NCBI GenBank assembly: GCA_902623545.1
Contig: CACNUI010000004.1
Span: 36,860 to 100,859 of the forward strand
Direction: 5' to 3'
Source of the DNA: an uncultured Alphaproteobacteria bacterium
Lineage (GTDB): Bacteria; Pseudomonadota; Alphaproteobacteria; HIMB59; GCA-002718135
Length of the DNA: 64,000 nt
Within the stretch, counting starts at the first letter, position 1, and every line of letters starts with the position of its first letter. Positions 21,176 through 39,531 of the stretch are shown piece after piece. The notes below the pieces were generated by a model, which was given only the letters and a program-made list of their open reading frames with translations, was not told the origin of the DNA and did not search any database. Made by a program: the position numbers and the translations under genes.

Positions 21176-22246
21176 TTATTTTAATAACCTTCTTAGTTTG
21201 CCTTCTGTAGAATCATGATCAATATAACATCCTTGTAAATGTCTAAATCCAGTATTGGGATCAAATTTTGTTCTTCCATGTAATGTACGTAAATTATCAA
21301 ACATAGCAATCATGCCTTTAGATAATCTAAATTTAATTTTAAATTGATCAGAATTACAAAGTTCATACATACATTTTCTGGCTTTATAAAAAGTTTTTAA
21401 TTTTTCTTGATTGAGATATGGGACATAATCCAATCTTCCACTAAAACTAATTTGCCTAAACTTACCATCATCGTCGAGCTCAATAAGTTTAGATTTATTC
21501 TCTAATATAACATCAACATCCGTAAACTTAAAATTTACATTAGTGTTAGTGAGAATTTGATAAAATTCTTTATTGTTCTCTCTTAAATATTCAGCAACAC
21601 TAAAACCGTCAACTAAACTTGAATCGCCACCAGTTGATTCATTTGCTATACAATGCAAGAGTTGAATACCTGGAACTGGTTTTCGATAAGGATTATCAGA
21701 ATGTGATTTTAATTCTAGAGCTGTGTATGCTAGATCATTAGGATTAGGTTTTGATACCACATTAAATAATTTTCCCCAGTTAGTAGTACGAACTGGACCA
21801 ATTTTTTCTGCGAAATTTAATACTTCATTTTCTACAGCTTCTGTATTTTCAATTATTACATATCCATACTCGTAGAAAGTTTTTAACATTTGAATTAAGC
21901 TCTCAGAATCTTGAAAAATTTTATTATTATCGAATATTTTTAAAGTGTCTTTTTTATTCCAAATTTTTTTTGATGGAATAGAATCAACCGAGTTTATTTC
22001 TTGATATAATTCATCAATACTAATCTTTCCTTTTACGCCATCAGAAAATGTAATACTTATAAATTTACCTTGAATTGAATAATTATTTATCAATAAGTTC
22101 TCATCTAGTAATGAAGGCTCATATAATCTTTGGAGATTATTAGGATCAACAAATTCATCACCTATTAGTCTTTCTCTAAGCCATAAACTATGTAAAATAG
22201 CACCTTTCAATACTCCTTCCTCTATAACTATTTCTTGTGAACTCAT
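21176..22246 (-). CDS. Fe(II)/2-oxoglutarate dioxygenase, gamma-butyrobetaine hydroxylase / trimethyllysine hydroxylase-like (TauD superfamily)
   Basis: HSD facial-triad motif (KSHSDNPY), PGIQLLHC block and distal LHGR. An N-terminal DUF971-like domain is present. Confidence 0.65.
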   Translation of the reverse strand: MSSQEIVIEEGVLKGAILHSLWLRERLIGDEFVDPNNLQRLYEPSLLDENLLINNYSIQGKFISITFSDGVKGKISIDELYQEINSVDSIPSKKIWNKKDTLKIFDNNKIFQDSESLIQMLKTFYEYGYVIIENTEAVENEVLNFAEKIGPVRTTNWGKLFNVVSKPNPNDLAYTALELKSHSDNPYRKPVPGIQLLHCIANESTGGDSSLVDGFSVAEYLRENNKEFYQILTNTNVNFKFTDVDVILENKSKLIELDDDGKFRQISFSGRLDYVPYLNQEKLKTFYKARKCMYELCNSDQFKIKFRLSKGMIAMFDNLRTLHGRTKFDPNTGFRHLQGCYIDHDSTEGKLRRLLK

Positions 22247-22946: not shown

Positions 22947-24230
22947 CTATCTTTCTTGGTAAGCTTTGAGACCTAGTTCAGCGCTGTCAATACCAGCCAT
23001 TTGAACTTCATCAGGCACTCTCAACCATCCCATAGATTTCATTGCTAGTGAAATAACATAGCCAGGAATAAATCCTGTTGCTATCATAGTTATAGCACCA
23101 ACCAACTGTCCAACAAAAGATGTCGGTGGAATATCTCCAGATGCAGGATATCCTGCAGCAAATATACCAACCACTAAAACACCTAAAATACCTGAAACAC
23201 CGTGCACTGATACAGCACCAACACAGTCATCTATTTTAAATGTATTATGTAACCAATTGTTTGCTGGTATAATTACTATGCCTGCCACAACACCCATAAT
23301 AAATGCAAAACCAGGATACCAAATGTCTAAACCGCCTGCACATATAAATATACCTGCTAGACCTCCAGACATCATCCAGAAAGGATTCCCTTTACTGTAC
23401 CAGAATGCTCCTATCATTCCACCTGATAATCCCATAAGGGTATTAAATGCAAATGAAGAAAGAGTTGCTGGTGCACCATAAATGTTAATCCAGCCACCTA
23501 AATCTGAACCTGCCCATATTAAACAGCCTCCAAGGAAACCAAAGAAACCAACTATGAGCATTAACAAACCTATAAATGATGAAACTAAGCTGTGACCCTC
23601 AATTTCATTTGCGGTACCATCTTCGTTGTATTTTCCAATACGTGGGCCAAGATTTAAAAGAACTCCAAATGCAAACCAACCAGCGATTGTATGTACAACA
23701 CCAGCTGCTCCAACATCATGATATCCAAAACCTGTGACTAACCATCCATCAGGATGCCATCCCCAAGATGCACCGATAATCCAAACTACTGAACCAAGTA
23801 TTACAGCTAAGAAAGTAAAAGCACTCAATCTAATTCTTTCAATAACCGCACCTGAAAAAATTGAAGCTGTTGTGCAAGCAAATAAAGTAAATGCTGCCCA
23901 GAAGACACCTGTCGCCTGGTCACTTAGCATTGGTCCCATAGAAACATTCCAAGGTGTTCCATATCCTTCTAAATCAATAGGTACGAAACCTGCAGGGAAT
24001 GCTAAATAAATGTACCATCCGAATAACCAAAAAGTTGGTATCATAAATGCAAAGGCTAAAAGGTTTTTAACACCTGAAGAAACAGCGTTCTTCATACGTG
24101 TTGCACCTACCTCATACATTAAGAAACCAACATGGATGATAACCATAAATGCAGTACACCACCAATAATAGGCTTCCATTGAAACGTTAGCTTGGGTGGT
24201 GACAAAGGTATTTAACTCCTCTAAAGTCAT
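22947..24230 (-). CDS. amt: Ammonium (possibly methylammonium) transporter, Amt family
   Basis: About 11 TM helices and the twin-His blocks VVHTIAGW and VSVHGVSGILGV. GGAAGGAG RBS. Confidence 0.9.
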   Translation of the reverse strand: MTLEELNTFVTTQANVSMEAYYWWCTAFMVIIHVGFLMYEVGATRMKNAVSSGVKNLLAFAFMIPTFWLFGWYIYLAFPAGFVPIDLEGYGTPWNVSMGPMLSDQATGVFWAAFTLFACTTASIFSGAVIERIRLSAFTFLAVILGSVVWIIGASWGWHPDGWLVTGFGYHDVGAAGVVHTIAGWFAFGVLLNLGPRIGKYNEDGTANEIEGHSLVSSFIGLLMLIVGFFGFLGGCLIWAGSDLGGWINIYGAPATLSSFAFNTLMGLSGGMIGAFWYSKGNPFWMMSGGLAGIFICAGGLDIWYPGFAFIMGVVAGIVIIPANNWLHNTFKIDDCVGAVSVHGVSGILGVLVVGIFAAGYPASGDIPPTSFVGQLVGAITMIATGFIPGYVISLAMKSMGWLRVPDEVQMAGIDSAELGLKAYQER

Positions 24231-24313
24231 ATTTTCTCCTTCCGAGTATATAAAAATACCGTTTGACTCATTTAATTATCAATATGGAAGTTTTAGAAAT
24301 GCGAGATTTGATC

Positions 24314-24365
24314 TGCGTTCCTTCAGTTAAAACTTACTTCCGTCTCAATAAGCGAGATGAACGAT
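24314..24365 (-). promoter_or_regulatory. glnA RNA motif (glutamine riboswitch)-like aptamer in the amt 5' leader
   Basis: The minus-strand RNA is AUCGUUCAUCUCGCUUAUUGAGACGGAAGUAAGUUUUAACUGAAGGAACGCAG. A closing helix CGUUC/GAACG, an internal UCUC/GAGA hairpin, and the ACGGAAGUA and GAAGGAACG blocks match the motif consensus as I remember it. Confidence 0.7.
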
Positions 24366-24482: not shown

Positions 24483-25808
24483 ATGTCACAGGATCTTTCA
24501 AAAATTGCTAAACAAAAAAAAATTAAATATTTTCTAATAAGTTACGTTGATTTCTTTGGAGTATTACGTTCAAAATTAGTTCCAGCACAAGTAATCAAAG
24601 ACATGCAAAAAGAGGGTGCTGGGTTTGCTGGGTTTGCTACTTACCTTGACATGTCTCCTGCTGACCCTGATATGGTATCAATACCGGATCCCTCGAGCTT
24701 AATACAATTACCATGGCAACCTGAAGTTGGATGGCTTGCAGGTGATTTATGGATGGATGGAAAGCCAGTTCAATCATCACCAAGGGTAATGCTTAAAAAT
24801 CAAATTAGCGAATTAAAGAAAAAAAATATGTTTTTAAAATCCGGTGTCGAATGTGAGTATTTTTTGATTTCACAAGATGGCAATTCTATTGCTGATGAAA
24901 AGGATCAGGCGTTTAAACCTTGCTATGATCAATCAGCTTTAATGAGGCAATATGATTTAATCAAAGAAATTTGTGATTCTATGATTAAACTTGGTTGGGG
25001 GCCTTATCAAAATGATCATGAAGATGCTAATGGCCAGTTTGAAATGAATTGGGATTTTTCTGACTGCCTAACAACTGCTGATAGACATGTTTTTTTTAAA
25101 TTTATGGTCAAAGCGCTTGCCGAGAAAAGAGGTTTAAGAGCAACATTTATGCCAAAACCATTTTCAAATAAAACAGGAAATGGTTGTCACGCGCATGTAT
25201 CCTTATGGGATAAAAAAGGTAGAAATATTTTTTTGGATAAAAAAGATAAATTAGGTTTATCTAAAAATGCTTATAATTTTATTGGTGGAATTATGCATTC
25301 AGCAGAAGCCTTAACAGCTTGGTTTAATCCAACAGTAAATAGTTTTAAAAGAATCAACGCACCTGTAACTGACTCAGGAGCAACTTGGTCTCCAAATACA
25401 ATTACATATTCAGGAAATAATAGAACACATATGATAAGGGTACCAGGTTCAGGAAGATTTGAATTAAGATTAATGGATGGAGCAGTTAATCCTTACCTTC
25501 TTCAAGCAGGAATTATTGCTGCTGGGATGGATGGGATGAAAAATAAAAGAAATCCTGGTAAGCCAATCCATATCAATATGTATGAAGAAGCTCATAAAAT
25601 TAAGAATGCAAAAAAACTTCCAAAAAATCTTGATATAGCGCTTACGAATTTATCAAAAAGTAAAGTAATGCAAAAAGCTTTTAGTCAAAAAACTATTAAT
25701 TCTTATGTTAAATTACGTACAACGGAAATTAAACAATTCAAAAAATCCAGTGATAGCAAAAAGAAGGGTATTACCAATTGGGAAAAAACAAATACTCTTG
25801 ATTGTTAA
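24483..25808 (+). CDS. Glutamine-synthetase-family ligase, type III (GlnT)-like; candidate gamma-glutamyl-amide synthetase
   Basis: GS catalytic blocks are ECEYF, DHEDANGQFEMN, NGCHAHVSLW, NSFKR and RFELRLMDGAVNPYL. It is transcribed divergently from amt. Confidence 0.75.
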   Translation: MSQDLSKIAKQKKIKYFLISYVDFFGVLRSKLVPAQVIKDMQKEGAGFAGFATYLDMSPADPDMVSIPDPSSLIQLPWQPEVGWLAGDLWMDGKPVQSSPRVMLKNQISELKKKNMFLKSGVECEYFLISQDGNSIADEKDQAFKPCYDQSALMRQYDLIKEICDSMIKLGWGPYQNDHEDANGQFEMNWDFSDCLTTADRHVFFKFMVKALAEKRGLRATFMPKPFSNKTGNGCHAHVSLWDKKGRNIFLDKKDKLGLSKNAYNFIGGIMHSAEALTAWFNPTVNSFKRINAPVTDSGATWSPNTITYSGNNRTHMIRVPGSGRFELRLMDGAVNPYLLQAGIIAAGMDGMKNKRNPGKPIHINMYEEAHKIKNAKKLPKNLDIALTNLSKSKVMQKAFSQKTINSYVKLRTTEIKQFKKSSDSKKKGITNWEKTNTLDC

Positions 25809-25817
25809 TAAAAAAGT

Positions 25818-26363
25818 ATGACTAAGGTAGGCTGGAGAGATTTTATTGTATGGCAATGTAGCTTACGTCAACGAAACTTTCGAATGTTTCAGGGCAAACC
25901 TTCTGAAGGTATAATTTGTAAAATATATGATAAAAAGAATAATAAAGATATAAAAAACTTTGTTAGTGTTTTATTAGAAAATAAAGTTAAAGAAGCTTCA
26001 AAAATGTTTGAGTATATGAATAAAAGAACTCACGACCCTGAAGAAAGATATTCGAAAGCAGTAAAACTATTTTCATCAGAATACTTCAATACACCAGAAA
26101 ACTTTGATGGACGATTTACTGCCACCTTTGCAGATAATGACACATTTGTTAAAAAAATAAAAACATCAATTAAATATCAAGCTCAATTTTTTGAAAGAGA
26201 TAGTGGATTTGATTTTCCAGTAAAAATAAAAAAACTAAAAAAAACTGACTATGAATGGCAATGTACTTTTTGGCACAATTTAATGTTTAATCCTGGTTTA
26301 AACGAAAATATTGAAGTACTACTTTTCACTCCTATTACAACTGGAATAAAAAGAAGTAATTAA
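25818..26363 (+). CDS. Hypothetical protein (181 aa), no recognisable family
   Basis: The ORF starts 9 nt after the GS-like gene and appears soluble. I recognise no motifs. Confidence 0.5.
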   Translation: MTKVGWRDFIVWQCSLRQRNFRMFQGKPSEGIICKIYDKKNNKDIKNFVSVLLENKVKEASKMFEYMNKRTHDPEERYSKAVKLFSSEYFNTPENFDGRFTATFADNDTFVKKIKTSIKYQAQFFERDSGFDFPVKIKKLKKTDYEWQCTFWHNLMFNPGLNENIEVLLFTPITTGIKRSN

Positions 26364-26776
26364 TTTTTTTTGTAAGCTTTTTTTAATGTTACAAGAGGAT
26401 GATTTGAAGACATTTGAAATTTAATTAATAGTTCTCTTGCAATCATATCCCTGTCTTGTTGATCTTTTGGTAATTTTAAATTTGGTGGAGTTGTTACCCA
26501 GCCGTTGATATTTCTATCAAAAACTGCAGGCTTACCATCTTCATAACCCATATGAACATCTTCTAGCCAGTTCAAATCATCCCAACCCATGTGCTCAATA
26601 TATTTTTGTAGGAAAGGAGTAATTCTTGTGTAATCAGGTAGAAGATTTACATCATAACGATATCCAATATGTTGGCCGATCATTTTCTCTCGAGCAGTTT
26701 TAATACCTTTGTCTTTTGTTTTAACTGAAGAAGTTTTTTTCTTAACAGTTTTTTTTGTTTTTTTCTTTTTTGCCAT
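26360..26776 (-). CDS. Hypothetical protein (138 aa) with polylysine N-terminal tail, last gene of the gmaS/mgs operon
   Basis: It starts 8 nt after the mgsC-like stop. The N-terminus is MAKKKKTKKTVKKKTSSVKTKDK. I recognise no family. Confidence 0.5.
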   Translation of the reverse strand: MAKKKKTKKTVKKKTSSVKTKDKGIKTAREKMIGQHIGYRYDVNLLPDYTRITPFLQKYIEHMGWDDLNWLEDVHMGYEDGKPAVFDRNINGWVTTPPNLKLPKDQQDRDMIARELLIKFQMSSNHPLVTLKKAYKKN

Positions 26777-26784
26777 TTTCTATC

Positions 26785-28134
26785 CTAGATTGAATGAAAG
26801 TTGTCTACACCAACAGTGTAATCAGTACCTGCTAAAGGAACTTTTGCAAGTGCTGAGGCTTCCATTGTTAGAGCAGCTAAATCTTCTGGTTCTAATGAGT
26901 GAATATTGGTTTTACCACATGCTCTAGCTAATAGCTGAGCTTCCAATGTCATAGAGTGTAAAAAATTATATACTCTTAATGCAGCATCATCTGGATTTAA
27001 TCTCTTTCTTAATTTTGGATCCTGAGTAGCAACACCAACTGGGCATCTCCCTGTATGACAGTGATAACAATCACCAGCTTCAACTCCAAGTTCTTTTTCA
27101 AAGTCTGCTTCCGGAATATCTTTGTTACAATTTAAAGCAACTAATGCAGCAGTACCTACAGAAATACAATCGGCGCCTAAAGCCAGAGCTTTTGCCATGT
27201 CAGCTCCATCTCTCAAACCACCTGCAAATATTAATGTAACATCTCCAGATTTTCCAACATCATCAAGTGCTCTTCTTGCTTCTCTAACAGCAGCAATACC
27301 TGGTATACCTGTATTTGCAGCAGCAATGTGAGGTCCTGCTCCAGTTGATCCCTCCATACAATCTAAATAAATTGAATCCGGATCGCATTTTGCAGCCATA
27401 CGAACATCATCATAAACTTTTGCAGCACCAAGTTTTAATTGAATTGGTACTTGATTGTCTGTTAATTCTCTTAATTCTTGAACCTTTAATGCTAGGTCAT
27501 CTGGACCGAGCCAATCTGGATGTCTTGCTGGTGAACGTTGGTCAATACCTGCTGGCAATGATCTCATTTCAGCTACCTGATCAGTAACTTTTTGACCCAT
27601 AAGGTGTCCACCCATACCAACTTTTTGACCTTGTCCAATAAATACTTCAATACCATCAGCTAGTTGTGCGTGATGAGGATTAAAGCCATATCTTGATTGA
27701 ATACATTGGTAATACCATTTATGTGAATATCTTCTTTCATCAGGTATCATTCCACCTTCACCAGAACACGTTGCGCTACCTGCCATCGTTGCGCCTCTAG
27801 CAAGTGCAGTTTTTGCTTCGTAAGAAAGCGCTCCAAAACTCATTGAAGTAATATATACTGGAATATCAAGCTCGATTGGATTTTTACATCTTGGACCAAT
27901 TACAGTTTTTGTTTCACATTTTTCTCTGTAACCTTCAATTACAAATCTGGTAAGAGTGCCTGGCAAGAAAGTAAGATCATCCCAATGTGGTATCTTTTTC
28001 ATTAAAGCCATACCACGCATACGATATCGACCTAATTCAGATTTAATATGGATATCGTTAATTACTTCAGGCGTAAATATTGCGTTACGTCCTAAAATAC
28101 TTTTATCTTGTTTTTTCTTTTTTTTACTTGCCAT
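26785..28134 (-). CDS. mgsC: Glutamate-synthase FMN-domain-like protein (N-methylglutamate synthase subunit C-like, GlxD type)
   Basis: GltB domain-2 blocks are SGEGGM, FAGGLRDGADMAKALALGAD and C-terminal CHTGRCPVGVATQDP. Operon context is with the GATase-II and GXGXG genes. Confidence 0.8.
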   Translation of the reverse strand: MASKKKKKQDKSILGRNAIFTPEVINDIHIKSELGRYRMRGMALMKKIPHWDDLTFLPGTLTRFVIEGYREKCETKTVIGPRCKNPIELDIPVYITSMSFGALSYEAKTALARGATMAGSATCSGEGGMIPDERRYSHKWYYQCIQSRYGFNPHHAQLADGIEVFIGQGQKVGMGGHLMGQKVTDQVAEMRSLPAGIDQRSPARHPDWLGPDDLALKVQELRELTDNQVPIQLKLGAAKVYDDVRMAAKCDPDSIYLDCMEGSTGAGPHIAAANTGIPGIAAVREARRALDDVGKSGDVTLIFAGGLRDGADMAKALALGADCISVGTAALVALNCNKDIPEADFEKELGVEAGDCYHCHTGRCPVGVATQDPKLRKRLNPDDAALRVYNFLHSMTLEAQLLARACGKTNIHSLEPEDLAALTMEASALAKVPLAGTDYTVGVDNFHSI

Positions 28135-28157: not shown

Positions 28158-29000
28158 TTAAATTGCACCTTTCCTCTCACTCGGTTCAAGATTATCGTAA
28201 TTCCATAATTTTTTACCAGAAACAATTTTTGTCATTTTTTTAAAATCAACTTTTTTATCAATTTCTGCGACTTTTAATTTTCTTTTTAACCAATCCACAT
28301 CAAGGTCAGTCATTTCAGCTTCAACAGCATCTGCTCCAAGAGATTTAATATTACCTCCAACAAAAATAGTTCCATCATAAAGTGAATCAGCTAGGTTCGG
28401 ACCAACATCTCCAAGTATAACAATTCTACCCCTTTGCATCATGAAACCAGTGAATGCACCGGCATCGCCACCAACAATAATTGTTCCGCCTTTCATATCT
28501 ATTCCAGATCTGGCACCAACACTTCCTTTACATATTAAGTCACCGCCTCTAATTGCAGCACCAAAACAAGAACCAGCATTTTTTTCTACAACAACTTTTC
28601 CAGCCATCATATTTTCAGCACATGACCATCCAACTCTTCCAGATATTCTAACATTAGGACCGTCAACAGAACCAATACCAAAATAACCAAGACTTCCCTC
28701 AACAATAAGATTTAGTTTATTAAGAATTCCAACACCTATACTATGCTTTGATCCTGGATTTTTAATAACTATAGTTCCATATCCTTGAGACATTAATTCC
28801 TTAATTTTTCTATTTATGTCTAAACATTCAATATCTTTTGCATCTATTTCTGTGCGTTTATTAAAGTCAACATCATAGGCATCATGATAGAAAAAATTTT
28901 CTGATTCCTCAGGGTTAAAAAAAACTTGCTGAGTGCGCCCTGTTAGCACTTCTTCATGAAGTCCCATTTCTGAAGATTTATGTCCTTTTATGCTTGCCAT
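28158..29000 (-). CDS. mgsB: GXGXG-motif glutamate-synthase domain-3-like protein (N-methylglutamate synthase subunit B-like, GlxC type)
   Basis: Repeated glycine-rich beta-helix motifs (GSLGYFGIGS, GDAGAFTGFMMQRGRIVILGDVG). Confidence 0.8.
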   Translation of the reverse strand: MASIKGHKSSEMGLHEEVLTGRTQQVFFNPEESENFFYHDAYDVDFNKRTEIDAKDIECLDINRKIKELMSQGYGTIVIKNPGSKHSIGVGILNKLNLIVEGSLGYFGIGSVDGPNVRISGRVGWSCAENMMAGKVVVEKNAGSCFGAAIRGGDLICKGSVGARSGIDMKGGTIIVGGDAGAFTGFMMQRGRIVILGDVGPNLADSLYDGTIFVGGNIKSLGADAVEAEMTDLDVDWLKRKLKVAEIDKKVDFKKMTKIVSGKKLWNYDNLEPSERKGAI

Positions 29001-29929
29001 ACTTTAACCTCACCTTCATATGGATCATATGTATCAATTTCAGTTGGCATGACACTACGAATTGCGACTTCCTCAGAAGCCAGCGCAACTAAATCATCAC
29101 TTTCATAAAGAACCATCGGTTTAGCGGCCATGGTGTCTTTGGCCATACCTAATTTGTCTTTTGTTGCAACTAAGTAAGTAAAAACACCGTCCAAATGTTC
29201 TAAAGATCCTCTCATTGCTTCTTCTAAATCCATACCCTCTCTAATTTTATCTGCCAGATATACTGCAATTAGTTCAGAATCACAGGAAGACAAGAAACGC
29301 ATTCCCTTTGCTTCAAGTGCTCTTCTATTGTTCCAATAATTTGTTAGCTGACCATTATGAACAACAGAAACATCACTAAAAGGGTAAGCCCAATATGGAT
29401 GTGCAGATCTTATATCGACACCTGACTCAGTTGCCATTCTTGTGTGACCAATTCCATGAGTGCCGGAAAATTGATTTAAGCTGTATTGATCAGCAACAAC
29501 TGATGCATCCCCAATATCCTTAATTAGTTCTAAAGATTTACCTAAAGATTGTATTTCAGTCTCCTCAACTGATTCAATTTTTTTTGCTAAATCTAATAAA
29601 TCACCATCATAAGAAATTACATATCTAAATGAATAGTCAGTAATTTTCTCATCATCATATATAGTAGCACCTACTTCATTTATTTTTTTATCAACTTCTT
29701 TTCTTCTGGCAGCATAAACACTTGGATCCTCTTTAACAGCAGTGGTACCTTCTTTAACATTTTCCCCTACCTTATATCTTAAAATATAATTATTAGACTC
29801 TCCTTCTCCATATAAAGCATAGCCCGTAGAGTCGGGTCCACGATGCTTCAGAGATTGAAGCATTTTTTGCATTTCTCCACCTACATTGTTTGAATTTCCT
29901 CTATGAATAATACCTGCTATTCCGCACAT
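28988..29929 (-). CDS. mgsA: Class-II (Ntn) glutamine amidotransferase-like protein (N-methylglutamate synthase subunit A-like, GlxB type)
   Basis: MCGIAGI N-terminal nucleophile Cys and the HTRMATES block. It overlaps the mgsB-like start by 13 nt. Confidence 0.8.
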   Translation of the reverse strand: MCGIAGIIHRGNSNNVGGEMQKMLQSLKHRGPDSTGYALYGEGESNNYILRYKVGENVKEGTTAVKEDPSVYAARRKEVDKKINEVGATIYDDEKITDYSFRYVISYDGDLLDLAKKIESVEETEIQSLGKSLELIKDIGDASVVADQYSLNQFSGTHGIGHTRMATESGVDIRSAHPYWAYPFSDVSVVHNGQLTNYWNNRRALEAKGMRFLSSCDSELIAVYLADKIREGMDLEEAMRGSLEHLDGVFTYLVATKDKLGMAKDTMAAKPMVLYESDDLVALASEEVAIRSVMPTEIDTYDPYEGEVKVWQA

Positions 29930-29947: not shown

Positions 29948-31420
29948 CTATGGTAAAATATCTAAATAAGTATCAACATCCCACTGGGTTACTGCAGATA
30001 GGAATTTTTCCCATTCATCTTTTTTGTAATGCATAAATACTCTAAGCATTTCATCAGGAAGAGCAGATTTAATAGTTTCATCACTATCTAATCTGTCTAT
30101 AGCTTCCCCTAAAGTTAATGGTAACTTATCAACTTTTTTACCAGCTTTCATTGCTTCATAGATATTTTGTTTTTCAGGCTCTCCTGGATCCATATTCTTA
30201 TCTAAACCATCATCAAATGCTTTTAGAATGCCACCTCCTAGTAAATAAGGATTGTGTGAAGAATCAACTGATCTATACTCTACTCTACCTGGTGCAGAAA
30301 CACGAACACTACACGTTCTGTTTTGATAACCCCAATCTGCATAAACTGGAGCCCAAAAACCTGTATCCCATAACCTTCTGTAAGAATTAACCGTTGGTGA
30401 TCCAAGACAAGTAAGTGCTGGCAAATGATTTAGCATTCCAGCAATACTATTGAGTCCTACTGGGCCTGGCTTTACCGCATCAATTTTTGGATCAGGCATA
30501 AACATATTTTCTCCACCTGATATATGAGTAAATACTTGCTCCATACCAGGTAATGGATCATTACCTATTGGAGTGGATTTTAATTCTCCACCTTTCCAAA
30601 GTGACACATTAGTATGACATCCATTCGCAGATACGCCCATGAATGGCTTACTCATAAAACATGCTATTAAATTAAACTCTCTAGCAACTTGTGCACAAAT
30701 TTGTCTGTAAGTTGAAAGCCTATCTGCATTTCGAAGGACTTCATCATACATAAAGTTAAGCTCTAATTGTCCCGGGGCATCCTCGTGATCTCCTTGAATA
30801 ACATCTAATCCCATCGCACGAGAATATTCAATAACTTTCATATAAACTGGTCTTAATGATTCAAATTGATCAATGTGATAACAATAAGGTCTTGAGAAAC
30901 CGTCACCAGTAGGTTCACCATTATCTTTTTTTGTTAACCACATCATTTCAGGTTCAGTACCAGCTCTTAAATGCATTCCATGCTTGTTTTTAAACTCATC
31001 TTGAAAAATTTTTAAATTACCACGACAGTCTGAAGTAAGATGTCCTCCTGGATTGTCATCTTCTTCTCTATTTCTAAAGCACGTTACAAAAACTCTTGCT
31101 ATTCTTTTATCCCAAGGAAGTTGAACAAAAGTTTCAGGTTCAGGAATACCAACAAGCTCAGAAGCCTCTGGACCGTATCCTATATAATCTCCATGCCTAT
31201 CTATAAAGAGGTTTGCTGTAGCGCCGTATACTAATTGAAAGCCTTTTTCTGCGATAGACTCCCAATGATCAGCTGGAACACCTTTACCAACAATTCTTCC
31301 TGTAACAGAAATAAATTGGTAGTAAATGTATTCAATTTTTAAATCGTTAATTTTTTTTCTAACATCCTTAACAAGCTTGTCTCTTCCAGGCTGGTTAACA
31401 AATTTTTCTAAATCAGTCAT
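29948..31420 (-). CDS. gmaS: Glutamine-synthetase-family ligase (490 aa); gamma-glutamylmethylamide synthetase candidate by synteny
   Basis: GS blocks are EPEMMW, DHEDAPGQLELNF, NGCHTNVSLW, NSYRRL and RVEYRSVDSSHNPYL. It sits between the SoxB/MgdA-like gene and mgsA, as gmaS does in known methylamine clusters. Confidence 0.6.
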   Translation of the reverse strand: MTDLEKFVNQPGRDKLVKDVRKKINDLKIEYIYYQFISVTGRIVGKGVPADHWESIAEKGFQLVYGATANLFIDRHGDYIGYGPEASELVGIPEPETFVQLPWDKRIARVFVTCFRNREEDDNPGGHLTSDCRGNLKIFQDEFKNKHGMHLRAGTEPEMMWLTKKDNGEPTGDGFSRPYCYHIDQFESLRPVYMKVIEYSRAMGLDVIQGDHEDAPGQLELNFMYDEVLRNADRLSTYRQICAQVAREFNLIACFMSKPFMGVSANGCHTNVSLWKGGELKSTPIGNDPLPGMEQVFTHISGGENMFMPDPKIDAVKPGPVGLNSIAGMLNHLPALTCLGSPTVNSYRRLWDTGFWAPVYADWGYQNRTCSVRVSAPGRVEYRSVDSSHNPYLLGGGILKAFDDGLDKNMDPGEPEKQNIYEAMKAGKKVDKLPLTLGEAIDRLDSDETIKSALPDEMLRVFMHYKKDEWEKFLSAVTQWDVDTYLDILP

Positions 31421-31447: not shown

Positions 31448-32794
31448 CTAACTCCAAGGAAATGGACTATTAGATGTAGGATGTAAATTTCCTTGTTCGT
31501 ATCTTGAAAATCTAAAAGGTTCTAGAAGTTTACTTTTTTCCCCCAATACCTCATCAGCAACAAGCTTACCAACTCCGATCATTTTATAACCATGATTTGA
31601 GTCTGCAATCAAGTAAACATTTTCTCTAAAAGTATCAAAAATAGGGAAAGAATCAGGAGTAAAACATCCTAATCCACCAGTTGCTCCCTTTTTAAATAAA
31701 TGAGATTTGCCTTCAAATCTTTTGTGGCAATGAGCTAAAGCTGATGTCCACATATGAGCAAAATGATCATCTAGAGTGAATTCTGAAGACTTAGGACCAT
31801 ATGGATCAACTAATACACCTTCTCCTCCAGCCTTACCAACCTTGTAAGGTGATGAACCGCCTTGAATACCATTAAAATGAAAATCAGGTTTGTAATAAAT
31901 TCCCCAAAGCTCATCAGTAATAAGTGATTTATCTACATCAGAATAAAGTGGCGCATCGGTATCTACATGAAGAACTGGTGGCATATTATCATCATCTGTT
32001 TTTAAAAAACCTGGCTCTACTCCAAGTACACCTTCTGTTAAAAACCAATATTGCCACATTGGAACATTGTTATGCATTTCACCTTTAGAATTTTTAATTG
32101 AAATTTGATTTGGCAAATCCATCATGTCCCAAAATGTTTTAACCCATGGCCCTGCTCCAACTATAACATGATCACATTTAATTAGACCTTTATCAGTCTC
32201 TATGCCAGTAACTGCATTTGAATTAGACCCAAATTCAAAACCTTTTACTTCTGTTCCAGTAAGAATTCGCACTCCTTCTGCTTCAGCTTTGTCGGCTAAT
32301 CCATAGATAGAAGAGGTATTATTTGCATACCCCCCTCTTTTTTCGTGAAGAACACTAGTGATACCTTGGGCTTGCCAATCACTAAAATATTTTTTCATGT
32401 ATTGTTCTGATTCTTTTTTTCCTTGAATAAATATAGAATCGTAACCAATATTTTTTTGTTGAGCATAAATTTCTGCAACATCATTTTCCATACATTCTGG
32501 GCTTATTTGCATGTATCCTACATCATGGTAGTGAAAATTTTTTGCATCACTCTCCCAAACCTCTACACACATTGCCATTAACTCTCTCATCGCAGGCTGA
32601 TAGTAATTATTTCTAATTACACCACATGCAATTCCACTTGCCCCTGCAGCAATGCTGTCTTTATCAATTACTAAAATTTTAGACCCATCACCTTTACCTT
32701 TAGCTTTCAATTTTGCAGCTAGGTGCCAAGCCGTACTTAATCCATGTATACCAGCTCCAATAATGGCATACTCAACTTTTGATGGTATCGACAT
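31448..32794 (-). CDS. FAD-dependent oxidoreductase, sarcosine oxidase beta / N-methylglutamate dehydrogenase subunit A-like
   Basis: YAIIGAGIHGLSTAWHLA dinucleotide fold and GACGVIRNNYY block typical of the SoxB family. It is the first gene of the operon. Confidence 0.7.
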   Translation of the reverse strand: MSIPSKVEYAIIGAGIHGLSTAWHLAAKLKAKGKGDGSKILVIDKDSIAAGASGIACGVIRNNYYQPAMRELMAMCVEVWESDAKNFHYHDVGYMQISPECMENDVAEIYAQQKNIGYDSIFIQGKKESEQYMKKYFSDWQAQGITSVLHEKRGGYANNTSSIYGLADKAEAEGVRILTGTEVKGFEFGSNSNAVTGIETDKGLIKCDHVIVGAGPWVKTFWDMMDLPNQISIKNSKGEMHNNVPMWQYWFLTEGVLGVEPGFLKTDDDNMPPVLHVDTDAPLYSDVDKSLITDELWGIYYKPDFHFNGIQGGSSPYKVGKAGGEGVLVDPYGPKSSEFTLDDHFAHMWTSALAHCHKRFEGKSHLFKKGATGGLGCFTPDSFPIFDTFRENVYLIADSNHGYKMIGVGKLVADEVLGEKSKLLEPFRFSRYEQGNLHPTSNSPFPWS

Positions 32795-32893: not shown

Positions 32894-33655
32894 CTAATTT
32901 TTAGTAAGCCTTTGAGAAATTTGTTTTGCTGTATTCATAACCTTGAGTGACAAATCTGGAATTGTTTTTAAGTTAATTGTACCTTTTGTTCCTGATATTG
33001 AGATTCCAGCTATAGCCCTTCCTTGTGAGTCAAGTATTGCAGAACCTATACCATGAATATAATCAAATGTTTCAGCTTCATTAATACTGAAACCTGACTT
33101 CCGTGATTTATTTAATTCTAAAATAAGTTTATCTAAAGAAGTAATTGTATTTTTTGTGTGCTTGTAAAGAGAATAGGTTTTATAAATATTTTTGAGTTCA
33201 TCTTTAGTTTTGAAAGATAAAATAGACTTACCTAATGCTGTACTATGAGCATCCTGTCTCATTCTAAAGGATCTTGGTGCATCATCCCCAGTTGGATCAA
33301 CCTTATCACAATAAACTATATGTGGTCCCTCTAAAACTGCAAGATATGTAATATGCTGGGTATCATAAGCAAGTTTTTTTATGTTTTCAAAACACGTTGT
33401 CGTTAAAGTTTTTAAAAAATCTGATTTATCACCAAAATCAAATATTTTGTGACCCAAAGAATATAAATTAGTTGATACATCTTTAAAAATATAACCTAAA
33501 CTTACAAGATATGTAAGAATACGAAATGCAGTTGCGCGGTCTAATTTAGTCATGGAAGCTACCTGACTAGCTTTAAGAGGTTTAGGAGATTTACCAACAC
33601 ACTCGATTATTACTAGTGCTTTTTTTATTGATCCACTTAAATAATTTCTTGTCAT
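32894..33655 (-). CDS. IclR-family transcriptional regulator
   Basis: N-terminal winged HTH (ASQVASMTKLDRATAFRILTYLVSLGY) and a C-terminal IclR effector-binding domain. Confidence 0.85.
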   Translation of the reverse strand: MTRNYLSGSIKKALVIIECVGKSPKPLKASQVASMTKLDRATAFRILTYLVSLGYIFKDVSTNLYSLGHKIFDFGDKSDFLKTLTTTCFENIKKLAYDTQHITYLAVLEGPHIVYCDKVDPTGDDAPRSFRMRQDAHSTALGKSILSFKTKDELKNIYKTYSLYKHTKNTITSLDKLILELNKSRKSGFSINEAETFDYIHGIGSAILDSQGRAIAGISISGTKGTINLKTIPDLSLKVMNTAKQISQRLTKN

Positions 33656-33717: not shown

Positions 33718-34596
33718 TTGAATATGTACAAGAGAGAAATAAAAATAATACAAAAAGTACCAATTTTTAAAAAAATAAAAAAAATTGATAAAATTCATGG
33801 CGGTATTACAAATCAAAATTTTAAGGTTTCATTAATTAATAATAAAAGCTACTTTGTGAGAATTTGTAATGAAATTCCAGAACATCTAATTAAGAGAGAA
33901 AATGAAATAAATGCTAGTAATGCAGCTTCTAATATAGGCGCATCTCCTAAATTAATTTATTCAAATAATAAGTTATTAGTCTTTGATTTTATTCAAGGTA
34001 AAACTTTAAGCGAAAGAGATGTTCAAGAAAATATAATTGAACTTGTTACATTATTGAAAAAAGTTCACACAGAAATTCCAAAACAACTAAAAGGTGTATC
34101 TCAAATATTTTGGGTTTTTCATGTAATCAGACATTACAATAGTTTTTTGAATGACAATGAAAGTAAGTATAAAAAAATACTTAAAGACCTACTAATTAAA
34201 GCTGAAGAAATAGAAAGACGATCTGCACCTTTTGATATAGTCTACGGTCACAATGATTTATTAGCGGCTAATTTTATTAAAAAAAATAATAAATATCTTT
34301 TAGTTGATTGGGAATATGCTGGATATAATACACCGCTTTTTGATTTAGGGGGGTTAAGTTCAAATAATAACTTCAATACAAAACAGGAAAAATTAATGCT
34401 TGAAAATTATTTTGAAAATAAAATTTCTAATACTTTAATGCATAAATTTAATTGTATTAAAGCAGCATCTCTTTTGCGTGAAACAATGTGGAGCATGGTT
34501 GCAGAGATTATATCTAAAATTGATTTTGATTATAAAAGTTATACAGAACAGAATTTAGAGAATTTTTATCAAGCTTATAAAAACCTTAAATTTTGA
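33718..34596 (+). CDS. Choline/ethanolamine-kinase-family (APH-fold) kinase
   Basis: Brenner motif HNDLLAANFI and choline-kinase motif LVDWEYAGYN. The track start is a TTG; an ATG at 33724 is an alternative. Confidence 0.7.
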   Translation: MNMYKREIKIIQKVPIFKKIKKIDKIHGGITNQNFKVSLINNKSYFVRICNEIPEHLIKRENEINASNAASNIGASPKLIYSNNKLLVFDFIQGKTLSERDVQENIIELVTLLKKVHTEIPKQLKGVSQIFWVFHVIRHYNSFLNDNESKYKKILKDLLIKAEEIERRSAPFDIVYGHNDLLAANFIKKNNKYLLVDWEYAGYNTPLFDLGGLSSNNNFNTKQEKLMLENYFENKISNTLMHKFNCIKAASLLRETMWSMVAEIISKIDFDYKSYTEQNLENFYQAYKNLKF

Positions 34597-34657: not shown

Positions 34658-37009
34658 ATGGAACTTAATTTAAAAAATTTTAATATAAGAAATAGTAAAC
34701 CAATTATTCTTGGTAATGCAGGTTTACCAGAAAATACTGAAAGATATCATCTAAATGGAATGGGTATTATTGGTATTGATATATATAAAGATGATAAAAT
34801 CAAAATAACAAATATTGAAGGATCACAAGTTTGTGAAATTACCTTTTTTGATAAGAATGGAAAATGCATTTCTCTTACATCTAAGAATTTTAATAATGAA
34901 GCAAACTTTATTAAAAATAAAATTAAAGAAAAAAATTATATAAATTTTTTAGAAAGACTTAAAAAGAAAAAATTTGATATCAGTAATCTAAAATCTTTAA
35001 ATATTTTCAATGAAGATAGTTTGAGCAATGATTCAATTAATTTAAATATTGAAAACGATGGATTTGCAATCTTTGCAGCACCTGGAAAAGATATGGAAAT
35101 TGATTCTAATGATGCCCCTTCTGATTTTTATATATTTATTGAAAGAAAAAATAAAAAAAACCAAAAAGATGAAGCCTTTTTACCTGAGCCATTAGCTGAT
35201 GTAAAAAATGAGATTTTAGTAAAAAAAAGTTCTGCAATTTCTTACGAAGTTAAGAAAGGTGATTTTATACAAATAATCGACATGTATGGAAGGCAGTGCT
35301 CAGATTTTAATGCATTTGATAGTGATGCATTACAAAAAGGAAGGGAGTATTCAATTGATCCAACAGCAACCAGATCTTTAATTGGTAATTCATATCCTAT
35401 GCCTGGTCTTTCTTCTAAATTTTTCGATAGAAACCAAGATCCACTTATAGAAGTGATGCAAGATAGTATTGGAAGGCATGATACTTTTGGGACTGCATGT
35501 TCTCTAAAAACATATGAAGACCAAGGATATTTTGGTCACATAAATTGCTCAGATAATTTTAATTATTCTTTAGATTCATTTGGAATTGAAAAAAGAAATG
35601 CATGGCAGGCTGTAAATTTATTTTGGAATACTGGAATAGATGATGCAAACGTATTTACTTCTGAAATGCCTTGGTCAAGACCAGGCGATTATGTATTATT
35701 TCAAGCACAAAAAGATTTAGTATGTGTTTCATCTGGTTGTCCCGATGATATTGATCCAGCAAATGACTGGAACCCGACAGATATTTTTGTTAGAATATAT
35801 AGTGAAAAAAATAAATTTTCTAAATCTATTGGATATAGAAAAAATGCTGATGCTGATTTTATGTTAACAAAAGAAACTGGTTTTCATTCAAGAACGTCTA
35901 AACTTACAAAAGACATGATGGAAAGTGCGGGTTATTGGATACCAGCAAAATATAATAACCACGGTGCGATATCTGAATATACAGCATGTAGAGAAAATGT
36001 TGTGATGATGGATTTATCTTCTTTAAAAAAATTTGAAATTGTTGGCCCTGATGCTGAAGAATTAATGAATATTGCATTAACAAGAAATGTAAAGAAACTA
36101 TCTATTGGACAAGTTGTCTATTCTGCAATGTGTTATGAAAATGGAACAATGATTGATGATGGAACACTTTACAGAATGACTGAACATAATTTTAGATGGA
36201 TATGCGGAAGTGATTATTCGGGTGAATGGTTGAGAGAACTTTCTAAAAAATTAGATTTGAGAGCTTGGGTTAAATCTTCATCAGATCAACTGCATAATAT
36301 TTCAGTTCAAGGTCCAAATAGTAGAAAAGTATTAAACAAAATTATTTGGACTGCTCCAAATCAACCCGAAATAAATGATTTAAAGTGGTTTCATTTTTCA
36401 ATTAGTAGGATTGGAGATCATAAAGGTGTGCCCCTAATGGTCTCTCGAACTGGTTATACAGGTGAATTAGGATATGAATTATATTGTCACCCAAAGAATG
36501 CTGCAGATATCTGGGATGCTGTTTGGGAAGCAGGGAGAGAATTTGGAATTGTTCCAATGGGATTTGAAGCATTAGATAAATTAAGAATTGAAGCCGGTCT
36601 AATTTTAGCAGGACATGAGTTTAGTGATCAAACTGATCCCTTTGAAGCCGGAATAGGTTTCACTGTTCCGCTTAAATCTAAAGAAACCAATTTTATTGGT
36701 AAAGATGAGCTAATAAAAAGAAAAAATAATCCTCAAAAAAAATTAGTAGGTTTAGAAATAAATGGTAATGAAGTAGCTCAACATGGAGACTGTGTTCATA
36801 TCGGTAGAGGGCAAGTAGGTATTATAACAAGTGGCACATTATCTCCTGTATTAGATAAAAATATTGCACTTTGTAGAATTGACTCAAAATATTCTGAATT
36901 AAATACAGAGGTTGAAGTAGGCAAATTAGATGGCCATCAAAAAAGAATAGCAGCTAAGGTTGTCAGTTTCCCTTTTTACGATCCTAGTAAGTCAAGAGTA
37001 AAAGCATAA
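34658..37009 (+). CDS. tdm: Trimethylamine N-oxide demethylase (DUF1989 domain fused to a GcvT-type tetrahydrofolate-binding domain)
   Basis: The 783-aa two-domain architecture has a central YGRQCSDFNAFD region (DUF1989-like). C-terminal aminomethyltransferase blocks are GYTGELGYELYC and EALDKLRIEAGL. tmm and tmoX are adjacent. Confidence 0.85.
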   Translation: MELNLKNFNIRNSKPIILGNAGLPENTERYHLNGMGIIGIDIYKDDKIKITNIEGSQVCEITFFDKNGKCISLTSKNFNNEANFIKNKIKEKNYINFLERLKKKKFDISNLKSLNIFNEDSLSNDSINLNIENDGFAIFAAPGKDMEIDSNDAPSDFYIFIERKNKKNQKDEAFLPEPLADVKNEILVKKSSAISYEVKKGDFIQIIDMYGRQCSDFNAFDSDALQKGREYSIDPTATRSLIGNSYPMPGLSSKFFDRNQDPLIEVMQDSIGRHDTFGTACSLKTYEDQGYFGHINCSDNFNYSLDSFGIEKRNAWQAVNLFWNTGIDDANVFTSEMPWSRPGDYVLFQAQKDLVCVSSGCPDDIDPANDWNPTDIFVRIYSEKNKFSKSIGYRKNADADFMLTKETGFHSRTSKLTKDMMESAGYWIPAKYNNHGAISEYTACRENVVMMDLSSLKKFEIVGPDAEELMNIALTRNVKKLSIGQVVYSAMCYENGTMIDDGTLYRMTEHNFRWICGSDYSGEWLRELSKKLDLRAWVKSSSDQLHNISVQGPNSRKVLNKIIWTAPNQPEINDLKWFHFSISRIGDHKGVPLMVSRTGYTGELGYELYCHPKNAADIWDAVWEAGREFGIVPMGFEALDKLRIEAGLILAGHEFSDQTDPFEAGIGFTVPLKSKETNFIGKDELIKRKNNPQKKLVGLEINGNEVAQHGDCVHIGRGQVGIITSGTLSPVLDKNIALCRIDSKYSELNTEVEVGKLDGHQKRIAAKVVSFPFYDPSKSRVKA

Positions 37010-38353
37010 TTACTTTGTCGACAAATAAGTCTTCATTGAATCATCCATTGCATCAAGCCATGTTGTATGATGGCTTGGACCGACTGAGCCAGTAACTGGT
37101 GATGAAAAAGACTTGTCTCTATATGTTAAAATATTATCCTCTTTATCGTGCTCCCAATCGTAAAAATGTTTTTTTATTAATTCAAAATCAATTTTTGGAT
37201 AATCAGTATGCTTTACAAGGTCAACACAATAGTCAGTTTGAAAGTCAATCATTTGATAAGGGTCTTCGAGAGATTCTTCTCTTTTAACCCATTGATCAAT
37301 ATCTTGTGATATTTTTTCGCTTGAAGGAAGATTAATTTTATTCAAAATAACATCCCTAACAAACCAAGCTTGAGCATCAAACATATTAAAAGTATGAAAT
37401 TGATCCTGCATACCTAGATAAAATAAATTTTTATTATTTTCCCAGACAACACCTTTATATAAACTAGGCGGATATAGCCTATTATGTGTTTTTAGTTTTA
37501 AGTCTTCCTCTAAAAAAGGAAAGTGATGAAGATAACCAGAGCATAAAATTAAAACATCCATCTCTTGAACTGTTCCATCTTTAAAAACAGCTTTATTTCC
37601 ATCGATTTTATCAAGATAATGAACTTCTTTCATTCCTTCAGGCCAATTAAATCCCATTGGATTATTTCTATATCCAATCGTAACTGTTTTTGCTCCATAC
37701 TTATAGCATTGGAGAGAAACATCTTCTGCCGAGTAACTGCTACCTAGTATTACAACATTTTTTTCTCTAAACTCTTCGGCATCTCTAAAGTCATGAGAAT
37801 GCATTATGCGACCTGGAAAACTGTCCATACCCTCATACTCAGGAACAAATGGTACCGAAAAGTGTCCATTGGCAACAATTACTTTATCAAAGTAATTATT
37901 TTCATATGTATTATTTTTCTTATTTCTTGCCATTAAGTTAAAACCATCACCACTAGTCTCAACGTATTCAACTGTTGTGTTAAATTTAACATATTTTTTT
38001 ACATCTGATTTTTCAACTCTTCCTAAAATATAATCTCTTAACACTTCTCTAGGTGGGAAAGATGGTATTGGTTTTCCAAAGTGTTCGTCAAATGAATAGT
38101 CTGCAAATTCTAAACATTCCTTTGGGCCATTAGACCACAAATATCTATACATACTATTATGAACTGTATCACCGTATTGATCAGTTCCGGTTCGCCAATT
38201 ATAATTCCATAAACCACCCCAGGTATCTTGTTTCTCATAACAAGTAATTTCTGGCATCTTTTCGCCTTTAACCTCAGCTTGTTGAAAAGCCCTAAGCATT
38301 GAAAGACCGCAAGGGCCAGAACCAATAATAGCTATTTTCGTCATAAAACTCAC
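37010..38353 (-). CDS. tmm: Flavin-containing monooxygenase, trimethylamine monooxygenase
   Basis: FAD motif IAIIGSGPCG, FMO-identifying motif FPGRIMHSHDF (FxGxxxHxxxF) and NADPH motif ILGSSYSAED. Confidence 0.85.
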   Translation of the reverse strand: MSFMTKIAIIGSGPCGLSMLRAFQQAEVKGEKMPEITCYEKQDTWGGLWNYNWRTGTDQYGDTVHNSMYRYLWSNGPKECLEFADYSFDEHFGKPIPSFPPREVLRDYILGRVEKSDVKKYVKFNTTVEYVETSGDGFNLMARNKKNNTYENNYFDKVIVANGHFSVPFVPEYEGMDSFPGRIMHSHDFRDAEEFREKNVVILGSSYSAEDVSLQCYKYGAKTVTIGYRNNPMGFNWPEGMKEVHYLDKIDGNKAVFKDGTVQEMDVLILCSGYLHHFPFLEEDLKLKTHNRLYPPSLYKGVVWENNKNLFYLGMQDQFHTFNMFDAQAWFVRDVILNKINLPSSEKISQDIDQWVKREESLEDPYQMIDFQTDYCVDLVKHTDYPKIDFELIKKHFYDWEHDKEDNILTYRDKSFSSPVTGSVGPSHHTTWLDAMDDSMKTYLSTK

Positions 38354-38413
38354 AAATAATTTAAATTAAGACCATTATTCTACAAAAATGCTAAATTGAA
38401 AAGCAAAAAGATG

Positions 38414-38428
38414 TTTCATATTGTGAAA
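38414..38428. promoter_or_regulatory. Inverted repeat TTTCA-N5-TGAAA in the divergent tmm/tmoX promoter region (candidate operator)
   Basis: ATGTTTCATATTGTGAAATA is centred 68 nt upstream of the tmm start. It shares the TTTCA-N5-TGAAACA core, in minus-strand orientation, with the palindrome at 32848-32872. Confidence 0.4.
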
Positions 38429-38500
38429 TAATTAAATTGTTACTTTAGTATTAAAAGATAAACTATTTTTATAATTTACGTAAATTAAACGGGAGGTAAT

Positions 38501-39451: not shown

Positions 39452-39460
39452 TTAATTATT

Positions 39461-39488
39461 AATCCCCACATTCGTGTGGGGATTTTTT
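39461..39488 (+). terminator. Rho-independent terminator/attenuator after tmoX
   Basis: AATCCCCACA-ttcg-TGTGGGGATT forms a 10-bp stem followed by TTTTTT. Confidence 0.75.
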
Positions 39489-39531
39489 CATTTTTTTATC
39501 TTAAATTTCATATTAAGGTATAGATATTAAT

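Follow-up and report, generated by a model that had tools for sequence, protein, structure and literature searches.

We analysed a 64,000-nucleotide (64-kb) stretch of contig CACNUI010000004.1 from an uncultured Alphaproteobacteria bacterium (the window, hereafter) and focused on two convergent open reading frames (ORFs) in it, ORF181 and ORF138, which encode proteins of 181 and 138 aa. ORF181 begins 9 nt after the stop codon of a 441-aa gene of the glutamine synthetase (GS) family (24483–25808), an orthologue of the gamma-glutamylmethylamide synthetase GmaS. ORF138 begins 8 nt after the stop codon of a 449-aa gene with a Glu_synthase domain (26785–28134), which encodes a putative flavin mononucleotide (FMN) subunit. 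The two ORFs meet in a shared TTAA that contains both stop codons: the TAA of ORF181 occupies positions 26361–26363 and the TAA of ORF138 is the reverse complement of 26360–26362. An earlier note, made from the sequence alone, had described the same coordinates, the two short gaps and the shared TTAA, and these match the ORF list and the sequence exactly. On the minus strand, the junction between the stop of the FMN-subunit gene and the start of ORF138 reads CTAGGATAGAAAATG; the AGGA that lies across the upstream stop suggests translational coupling of ORF138 to the FMN subunit. Where ORF181 and ORF138 converge, we found no intrinsic terminator. ORF138 is the sixth gene of an operon that encodes, in this order, a flavoprotein of the DAO family (DAO448), a divergent GS-family ligase (GS490), a class-II glutamine amidotransferase (GATase) subunit, a GXGXG subunit, the FMN subunit and ORF138 itself. 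As in mgsABC, the three genes directly upstream of ORF138 encode a class-II GATase domain, a GXGXG domain and a Glu_synthase (FMN) domain.

ORF181 and ORF138 are real genes under purifying selection. We identified 327 clusters of close ORF181 homologues with a length of about 181 aa and identities of 54–98%, and a search with the family profile returned 1256 clusters, all of them without a name. The close clusters of ORF138 number more than 8000, which is a lower bound. When compared with SAR11 relatives, the nonsynonymous divergence (dN) was 0.03–0.09 for ORF138 and 0.11–0.31 for ORF181, next to 0.02–0.06 for the FMN subunit and 0.06–0.16 for the GS-family gene, with synonymous divergence (dS) saturated (>1). 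The proteins of the window are 96–100% identical to those of the single-cell genome AG-916-I19, which is labelled as uncultured Alphaproteobacteria, and the nearest relatives of the window are Pelagibacterales-type genomes.

Both families are undescribed in the libraries and literature that we searched. Neither ORF181 nor ORF138 gave a match in Pfam or NCBIfam, and the same was true of five distant ORF181 homologues in both libraries and of all 31 members of the ORF181 alignment in Pfam. Precomputed Pfam domains were absent from every homologue of either protein. Sequence searches of the PDB with single sequences of ORF181 and ORF138 and with the ORF181 profile returned nothing, nor did tblastn of ORF138 against plasmids. 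A GATase or Peptidase_C26 domain, which would point to a gamma-glutamyl-amide hydrolase of the PuuD type, was detected in neither ORF by Pfam or NCBIfam. An exhaustive phmmer search of 1.84 billion representative proteins gave 287 hits for ORF138; the best 150 of these are all at least 56% identical to it, many being fragments or frame-shifted calls, and they comprise its own family only, with no distant relative and no similarity to GltB among them. The literature search retrieved no description of ORF138, ORF181, a fourth Mgs subunit or the paralogous operon. The earlier note had likewise been unable to place either protein in a family, and had proposed that they serve gamma-glutamyl/N-methylglutamate chemistry, an idea that would be refuted by a lack of conservation outside close relatives, by a lack of co-occurrence with gmaS/mgs genes or by homology to a housekeeping family. 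We found no homology to a housekeeping family or to any other described family, both ORFs are retained far beyond close relatives, and both accompany genes of the gamma-glutamyl/N-methylglutamate type. The core of that proposal, conserved accessory proteins of this chemistry, holds.

The position of ORF138 is strictly conserved. A scan restricted to one genome per species identified at least 585 stretches with a relative of ORF138, and in 80/80 loci that we fetched from these, ORF138 is located immediately 3' of the FMN-subunit gene. These loci belong to Pelagibacterales (Pelagibacteraceae), HIMB59, Kiloniellales (Kiloniellaceae), Dongiaceae, Rhodobacterales and Hyphomicrobiales, and further to several Gammaproteobacteria, a metagenome-assembled genome of Dehalococcoidia and Ca. 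Cybelea. On other contigs, the precomputed gene calls place a gene of 129–177 aa without annotation at the corresponding position. ORF138 stays behind the FMN-subunit gene where the DAO gene has moved behind ORF138 (loci L146 and L138), and it keeps its position in the seven of 23 non-SAR11 loci that have no DAO gene nearby. We use the term canonical set for the GATase, GXGXG and Glu_synthase genes that stand beside the GmaS orthologue in sister genomes; no ORF138-like gene was found in the canonical Mgs-like set of the same genomes. The possibility that ORF138 is a read-through extension of the FMN subunit was considered and rejected because the two are in different frames and are separated by 15–224 nt between matches in other taxa.

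To describe how the operon proteins diverge, we compared their distance matrices across the 62 loci that contain all six genes. Mean pairwise distance was lowest for the FMN subunit (0.13), followed by ORF138 (0.16), GS490 (0.22), the GXGXG subunit (0.26), the GATase subunit (0.29) and DAO (0.30), so that in this operon only the FMN subunit is more conserved than ORF138. For ORF138, the strongest correlation is with the matrix of the GXGXG subunit (r 0.93). When the average of the remaining genes was partialled out, the GXGXG subunit still ranked first with a partial r of 0.61, and the values for the FMN subunit, GS490, GATase and DAO were 0.23, 0.16, 0.05 and 0.01, respectively. The ORF138 protein has a variable, Lys-rich basic tail (approximately residues 1–30) and, over about 108 aa, a core that is very conserved; it contains no cysteine or cofactor motif. 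By eye, the FMN subunit has a Lys-rich N-terminal stretch (MASKKKKKQDKS) that resembles the ORF138 tail, and close to its C-terminus a cysteine motif, CYHCHTGRCP, that may bind an iron–sulfur cluster.

ORF181 is a fast-evolving, optional companion of N-methylglutamate-pathway genes. Using tblastn and a hidden Markov model of the family, we identified homologues with 22–35% identity beside the operon in many non-SAR11 loci, where they lie at most a few hundred bases from its 3' end and are mostly convergent with ORF138. ORF138, a DAO gene or an FMN-subunit gene was present within 5 kb in 59 of the 80 metagenome loci that were seeded with ORF181; the other loci are mostly cut off by contig ends or have a canonical Mgs set lying in between. 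Besides the operon, the recurrent partners of ORF181 are gmaS, DAO, CN_hydrolase and soxBDAG genes. The same-strand gene upstream of ORF181 is gmaS in SAR11 and HIMB59, DAO in soil-type contigs and CN_hydrolase in L162, L163 and L166, and often, as in L020, L027, L033, L064, L066 and L161, ORF181 is divergent from a soxB-soxD-soxA-soxG cluster. The coupling to gmaS that the earlier note described is a feature of SAR11 and HIMB59, and elsewhere it gives way to a place at the 3' end of the operon, after DAO or CN_hydrolase, or divergent from soxBDAG. ORF181 as a specific partner of GmaS was rejected for the same reason, since outside these two groups it is not found beside gmaS. The presence of ORF181 is also independent of the DAO gene (10/16 loci with DAO and 4/7 without). 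The broad alignment of the family revealed the invariant residues F9, W12, Q13, C14, R17, R22, G26, P28, F96, F157 and P172 and a near-invariant WHNxxFN motif.

The surroundings of ORF181 homologues showed some further regularities. The divergent soxB-soxD-soxA-soxG cluster, which is N-methylglutamate-dehydrogenase-like (4421–9012 in L161), is followed by a helix-turn-helix/cupin regulator in these loci, and in L161 a ChaC-like gene is convergent on ORF181. The CN_hydrolase gene, which belongs to the nitrilase superfamily (9101–9949 in both L162 and L163, 8041–8940 in L166 and 13742–14245 in L167), is found repeatedly in the vicinity of the operon or as the gene just before the ORF181 homologue, and in L162 and L163 it stands where other same-strand arrangements have the DAO gene.

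The AlphaFold model of ORF181, calculated from a 40-sequence alignment, has a mean predicted local distance difference test score (pLDDT) of 86.7 and a predicted template modelling score (pTM) of 0.84. Among the top 50 PDB matches of this model in Foldseek, nearly all belong to the FMN-binding split-barrel superfamily, with probabilities of 0.8–1.0, and they include PNP-oxidase-like proteins, general stress protein 26, HutZ, the F420-binding Rv2074 and PaiB. Based on this model, ORF181 probably adopts a split-barrel (PNPOx-like) fold, and we hypothesise that it binds a cofactor.

The genes next to the two ORFs are listed in Table 1. The 441-aa gene, which had been labelled type-III GS-like, is an orthologue of characterised GmaS: it matches TIGR03105 over its full length and above the cut-off of that model (469.6 bits), it matches the structure of Rhodovulum GmaS (RhGmaS, PDB 7cql), and the Trp in its SGATWSPN motif aligns with the flap-Glu position of GS (position according to PMC7948447). 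GS490 scores 295 bits with TIGR03105, below the cut-off, and 165–185 bits with GmaS and GS structures, being equally far from both; its identity to the GmaS orthologue is 27%. It has a GmaS-like Trp at the flap-Glu position (again according to PMC7948447) and about 24 additional residues inserted behind the HxNVSLW motif. By these comparisons, GS490 is neither GmaS nor GS, and its flap-position Trp suggests an amine rather than ammonia as the substrate. DAO448 reaches 77 bits with the soxB model, whose cut-off is 529 bits, and its best PDB match is 1y56_B (6e-16).

Several sister SAR11 genomes contain two Mgs-like gene sets, and the canonical set shares 31–53% identity with the operon upstream of ORF138. 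The FMN subunit is 76–100% identical across the 80 loci and about 50% identical to its counterpart in the canonical set. The operon of the window is not orthologous to the GmaS-associated set, given these identities and a ligase at 27% that falls below the TIGR03105 cut-off. What the earlier note had called the mgs operon is, as judged from its sequence, a distinct paralogue of the canonical N-methylglutamate synthase set. No second, canonical Mgs set was found within the 64-kb window, and GmaS in the window has no canonical Mgs partner nearby. In seven loci from sister SAR11 genomes, canonical mgsA'B'C' genes (about 3 kb) are located between ORF138 and ORF181.

Table 1. Genes and other features around ORF181 and ORF138, with coordinates in the window.
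Feature	Coordinates	Strand	Length (aa)	Evidence or remarks
TauD/TfdA-family dioxygenase	21176–22246	-		
AmtB-like gene	22947–24230			
Glutamine riboswitch, leader of AmtB-like gene	24312–24365	-		RF01739, 62.9 bits (gathering score 35)
GmaS orthologue, gamma-glutamylmethylamide synthetase	24483–25808	+	441	TIGR03105, 626 bits; PDB 7cql, 571.6 bits
ORF181	25818–26363	+	181	ATG start; undescribed family; ORF list and raw sequence
TTAA with both stop codons	26360–26363			Convergent ORFs; read directly in the sequence
ORF138	26360–26776	-	138	ATG start; ORF list and raw sequence
AGGA, Shine-Dalgarno-like	26783–26786	-		Overlaps TAG stop of FMN-subunit gene; 6 nt before ORF138 ATG
FMN/Glu_synthase-domain subunit, MgsC-like paralogue	26785–28134	-	449	PF01645 at 4e-87
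GXGXG subunit, MgsB-like paralogue	28158–29000	-	280	PF01493
Class-II glutamine-amidotransferase subunit, MgsA-like paralogue	28988–29929	-	313	PF13537, PF13522
GS490, divergent GS-family ligase	29948–31420	-	490	PF00120
DAO448, DAO-family flavin adenine dinucleotide (FAD) flavoprotein, distantly SoxB-like	31448–32794	-		PF01266; first gene of the operon
IclR-family regulator	32894–33655	-		Pfam; upstream of the operon; position kept in SAR11-type loci
Choline/ethanolamine-kinase-like gene	33718–34596	+		
Tdm-like gene	34658–37009		783	DUF1989 and GCV_T
Tmm-like flavin-containing monooxygenase (FMO)	37010–38353		447	
TmoX-like OpuAC binding protein, ABC ATPase, fused permease	38501–42632			

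The operon and its two accessory genes are located in a methylated-amine island, between the Tmm/Tdm genes and GmaS, and the Tdm-, Tmm- and TmoX-like genes lie 2–13 kb from them in the window. The island is bordered by the TauD/TfdA-family dioxygenase gene and the choline/ethanolamine-kinase-like gene. Adjoining its part at 34658–42632, we saw neither dmmDABC-like nor soxBDAG genes. The operon in non-SAR11 loci is flanked by soxBDAG-like, FMO-like, OpuAC, AmtB and GntR/FCD genes. As context, the leader of the AmtB-like gene contains a glutamine riboswitch, which ties the neighbourhood to nitrogen status; in strain HTCC1062, a candidate structured RNA has been reported in the intergenic sequence that precedes amt (SAR11_1310) (PMC2704228).

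Our interpretation, which we hold with moderate confidence, is that the GmaS/N-methylglutamate-synthase pathway has a paralogous amine-assimilation module, of which ORF138 and ORF181 are undescribed accessory proteins. The core of this module would consist of GS490, acting as an ATP-dependent gamma-glutamyl-amine ligase, the three-part glutamate-synthase-like complex and ORF138, to which the DAO-type flavoprotein and ORF181 would usually be attached. The most likely reading of ORF138 is that of an obligate fourth subunit, without catalytic function, of the glutamate-synthase-like complex: its conservation, position, divergence and sequence, together with its poor monomer model, fit a subunit that folds on this complex. 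We expect it to be translated directly behind the FMN subunit and to fold within the complex only, probably in contact with the GXGXG/FMN part and with a basic tail that is seemingly dispensable, and it would adapt or stabilise a complex that moves the amine from a gamma-glutamyl amide onto glutamate. ORF181 is best read, on its predicted structure, as an optional split-barrel helper. As a small soluble protein, it would bind either a flavin-type cofactor or a ligand from the pathway and assist with redox steps or the handling of intermediates, and it would not be essential in cis.

Several observations weigh against this interpretation. The reality of both genes, their conservation, synteny and rates of evolution and the absence of a family match are direct results; we infer, rather than observe directly, the contact of ORF138 with any subunit, the fold and cofactor binding of ORF181 and the substrate of the module. 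The signal in the distance matrices is weak because these are genes of one operon, the 62 loci are dominated by SAR11 and the pairs are not independent. The monomer model of ORF138 is of low confidence (pLDDT 58.6, from 16 mostly similar sequences), and Foldseek with this poor model returned only noise and no fold match. The conserved H75, E72, D73 and E79 of ORF138 leave room for a small enzyme. For ORF181, the fold match is weak, with E values of 1e-3 to 7e-2, template modelling (TM) scores of 0.4–0.6 and identities of 4–14%, and PNPOx-type Pfam models gave no hit, with E values up to 10, to ORF181 of the window or to 31 members of its family. In the loci seeded with ORF138, ORF181 is present within 10 kb in 30/80 and missing from 50/80, and all loci of the Pelagibacteraceae subclade-I type are without ORF181 near the operon. 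The ORF181 homologue in L137 (9971–10525) stands alone, with no pathway gene within 10 kb on either side. Given this isolated homologue and the absence of ORF181 from 50 of the 80 loci, the module appears to work without ORF181 in cis. The neighbours of the L137 homologue are a peptide-deformylase-like ORF, recognised by eye, and other unrelated ORFs.

Alternative explanations were considered for both proteins. That ORF181 and ORF138 are lineage-specific filler or mis-called ORFs, unconnected to the neighbouring enzymes, would agree with their lack of any family annotation and with the label "hypothetical protein" that all sources give to their homologues. Conservation and synteny have already refuted this reading, which retains next to no probability: the homologues number hundreds to thousands, purifying selection on both ORFs is strong, and synteny is kept across phyla. 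A more specific proposal is that ORF138 serves as a small subunit of the DAO-type flavoprotein, in a role like that of SoxD or SoxG for SoxB. The SoxB-like flavoprotein indeed has no alpha, gamma or delta partners, and in the soil-type contigs L146 and L138, which are ordered FMN subunit–ORF138–DAO–ORF181, ORF138 directly precedes DAO. In the common order, however, the DAO gene is five genes away, ORF138 is retained in loci with no DAO gene nearby, and its divergence follows that of the GXGXG subunit rather than that of DAO (partial r 0.61 and 0.01, respectively). Furthermore, the probability of a match between ORF138 and SoxD in hhalign is 0.2%, and ORF138 has no cysteines for a SoxD-type zinc site. 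We consider this role quite improbable; the suggestion of the earlier note that a partner of the lone SoxB-like flavoprotein might be found here is not favoured for ORF138, given its position, the loci without DAO and the partial r of 0.01.

For ORF181, we considered two readings other than that of a split-barrel helper. It could be a ligand-binding regulator or sensor of the N-methylglutamate pathway that carries out no cofactor chemistry and, for example, binds a gamma-glutamyl amide or an N-alkylglutamate and modulates enzymes or expression. ORF181 often stands by itself between operons, divergent from soxBDAG in the six loci named above, it is fast-evolving and optional with varied partners, and some split-barrel proteins were first described as regulators, among them PaiB, whose structure is one of the fold matches. 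Against this, we detected no DNA-binding domain in ORF181, the operon is already flanked by dedicated regulators of the IclR or GntR/FCD type, and in SAR11 the gene is coupled 9 nt behind gmaS in the fashion of an enzyme subunit. We regard a sensor as unlikely. Alternatively, ORF181 might itself be an enzyme, such as a hydrolase that releases the amine from gamma-glutamyl amides or a transferase that moves it, with the invariant Cys14 and the near-invariant His153 and Asn154 as its catalytic residues. Cys14 is invariant, and His153, Asn154 and Asp73 nearly so, across 22–98% identity, and the position of ORF181 behind gmaS in SAR11 and behind CN_hydrolase elsewhere fits amide chemistry. The protein nevertheless matches no hydrolase or amidotransferase family, its predicted fold is unlike known cysteine-hydrolase folds, and the model places Cys14 within a helix (residues 6–23) and not at its N-terminus. 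There is, in our view, little likelihood of such an enzyme.

A broader reading of the module of GS490, the glutamate-synthase-like complex, the flavoprotein and the two accessory proteins is more speculative, and we regard it as doubtful. The seven genes could constitute a complete, undescribed glutamate-mediated route for a methylated or other small amine outside the range of the known pathway, dimethylamine being the obvious candidate, with ORF138 as a new obligate subunit that retunes a complex of the N-methylglutamate-synthase type for the new substrate and ORF181 as a new flavin-binding partner. SAR11 bacteria contain Tmm, Tdm and GmaS and lack the DmmDABC monooxygenase (PMC5520151), and how they handle dimethylamine was an open question in that 2017 study. 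A role of the amine oxidase SAR11_1304 in dimethylamine oxidation has been raised, and was untested there (PMC5520151; PMC3870248). Since SAR11 is without dmmDABC and this role for SAR11_1304 has been raised, the module is a candidate for the missing dimethylamine step.

The module is carried by SAR11 and by many other marine and soil bacteria. Two extra dedicated proteins change the gene set for reconstitution, in which the recognisable enzymes alone may fail, and marker-gene surveys may lump together two different systems when they rely on similarity to count "gmaS" or "glxBCD/mgsABC". ORF138 and ORF181 are good candidates for missing parts of methylated-amine use by ocean bacteria.

The closest known system is the N-methylglutamate pathway (GmaS, MgsABC and MgdABCD), with which the module shares a GS-family ligase, a split glutamate-synthase-like complex and a flavoprotein of the sarcosine-oxidase family, as well as a neighbourhood that contains Tmm, Tdm, TmoX, AmtB and often soxBDAG. 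The module differs in that its proteins are paralogous (Mgs-like proteins at 31–53% identity and the ligase at 27% to GmaS), its flavoprotein is a single DAO-type chain and not SoxBDAG, and ORF138 and ORF181 are additional proteins that were not found described in the literature searched. The large subunit GltB of glutamate synthase (GOGAT) has the same amidotransferase, FMN (PF01645) and GXGXG beta-helix modules, which are split into three genes here; unlike GOGAT, the module has no central domain and no GltD-type partner, and ORF138 shows no detectable similarity to any part of GltB, its best 150 phmmer hits all coming from its own family.

SoxD and SoxG of heterotetrameric sarcosine oxidase/N-methylglutamate dehydrogenase are comparable to the two ORFs in being small (about 100 and 200 aa) and encoded beside a SoxB-type flavoprotein gene. 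Homology to them was rejected, as hhalign gave probabilities below 1% for ORF181 with SoxG and for ORF138 with SoxD, both taken from L161, and neither ORF matches PF04267 or PF04268; ORF138 is also without cysteine, whereas SoxD has a Cys3His zinc site. The PNPOx-like superfamily (PNP oxidase, general stress protein 26, HutZ/HugZ, Rv2074 and PaiB), which accounts for nearly all of the top 50 fold matches of ORF181, differs from it by the low identity of 4–14%, the lack of a Pfam hit and an extra helical insert in ORF181 at approximately residues 57–91.

The operon also has a probable counterpart, by gene order, in Ca. Pelagibacter ubique HTCC1062. The genes SAR11_1304–SAR11_1309 of this strain are in the same order as those of the subclade-I-type loci (sox, glnT, …, gltB2, hypothetical protein, amt), with sox as SAR11_1304, glnT as 1305, gltB2 as 1308, the hypothetical protein as 1309 and amt as 1310, followed by glxBCD as 1313–1315 and a further glnT as 1316. 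Loci of the HTCC1062 type differ from the window in having no ORF181 near the operon. By gene order rather than by sequence comparison, the operon of the window would be of the SAR11_1304–1309 type, and DAO448 would be equated with SAR11_1304 (PMC3870248). SAR11_1309, at the place of ORF138 in this order, is listed only as "hyp. protein" (PMC2704228), and SAR11_1304 rises strongly under nitrogen limitation and is among the two most induced proteins in Ca. P. ubique (PMC3870248).

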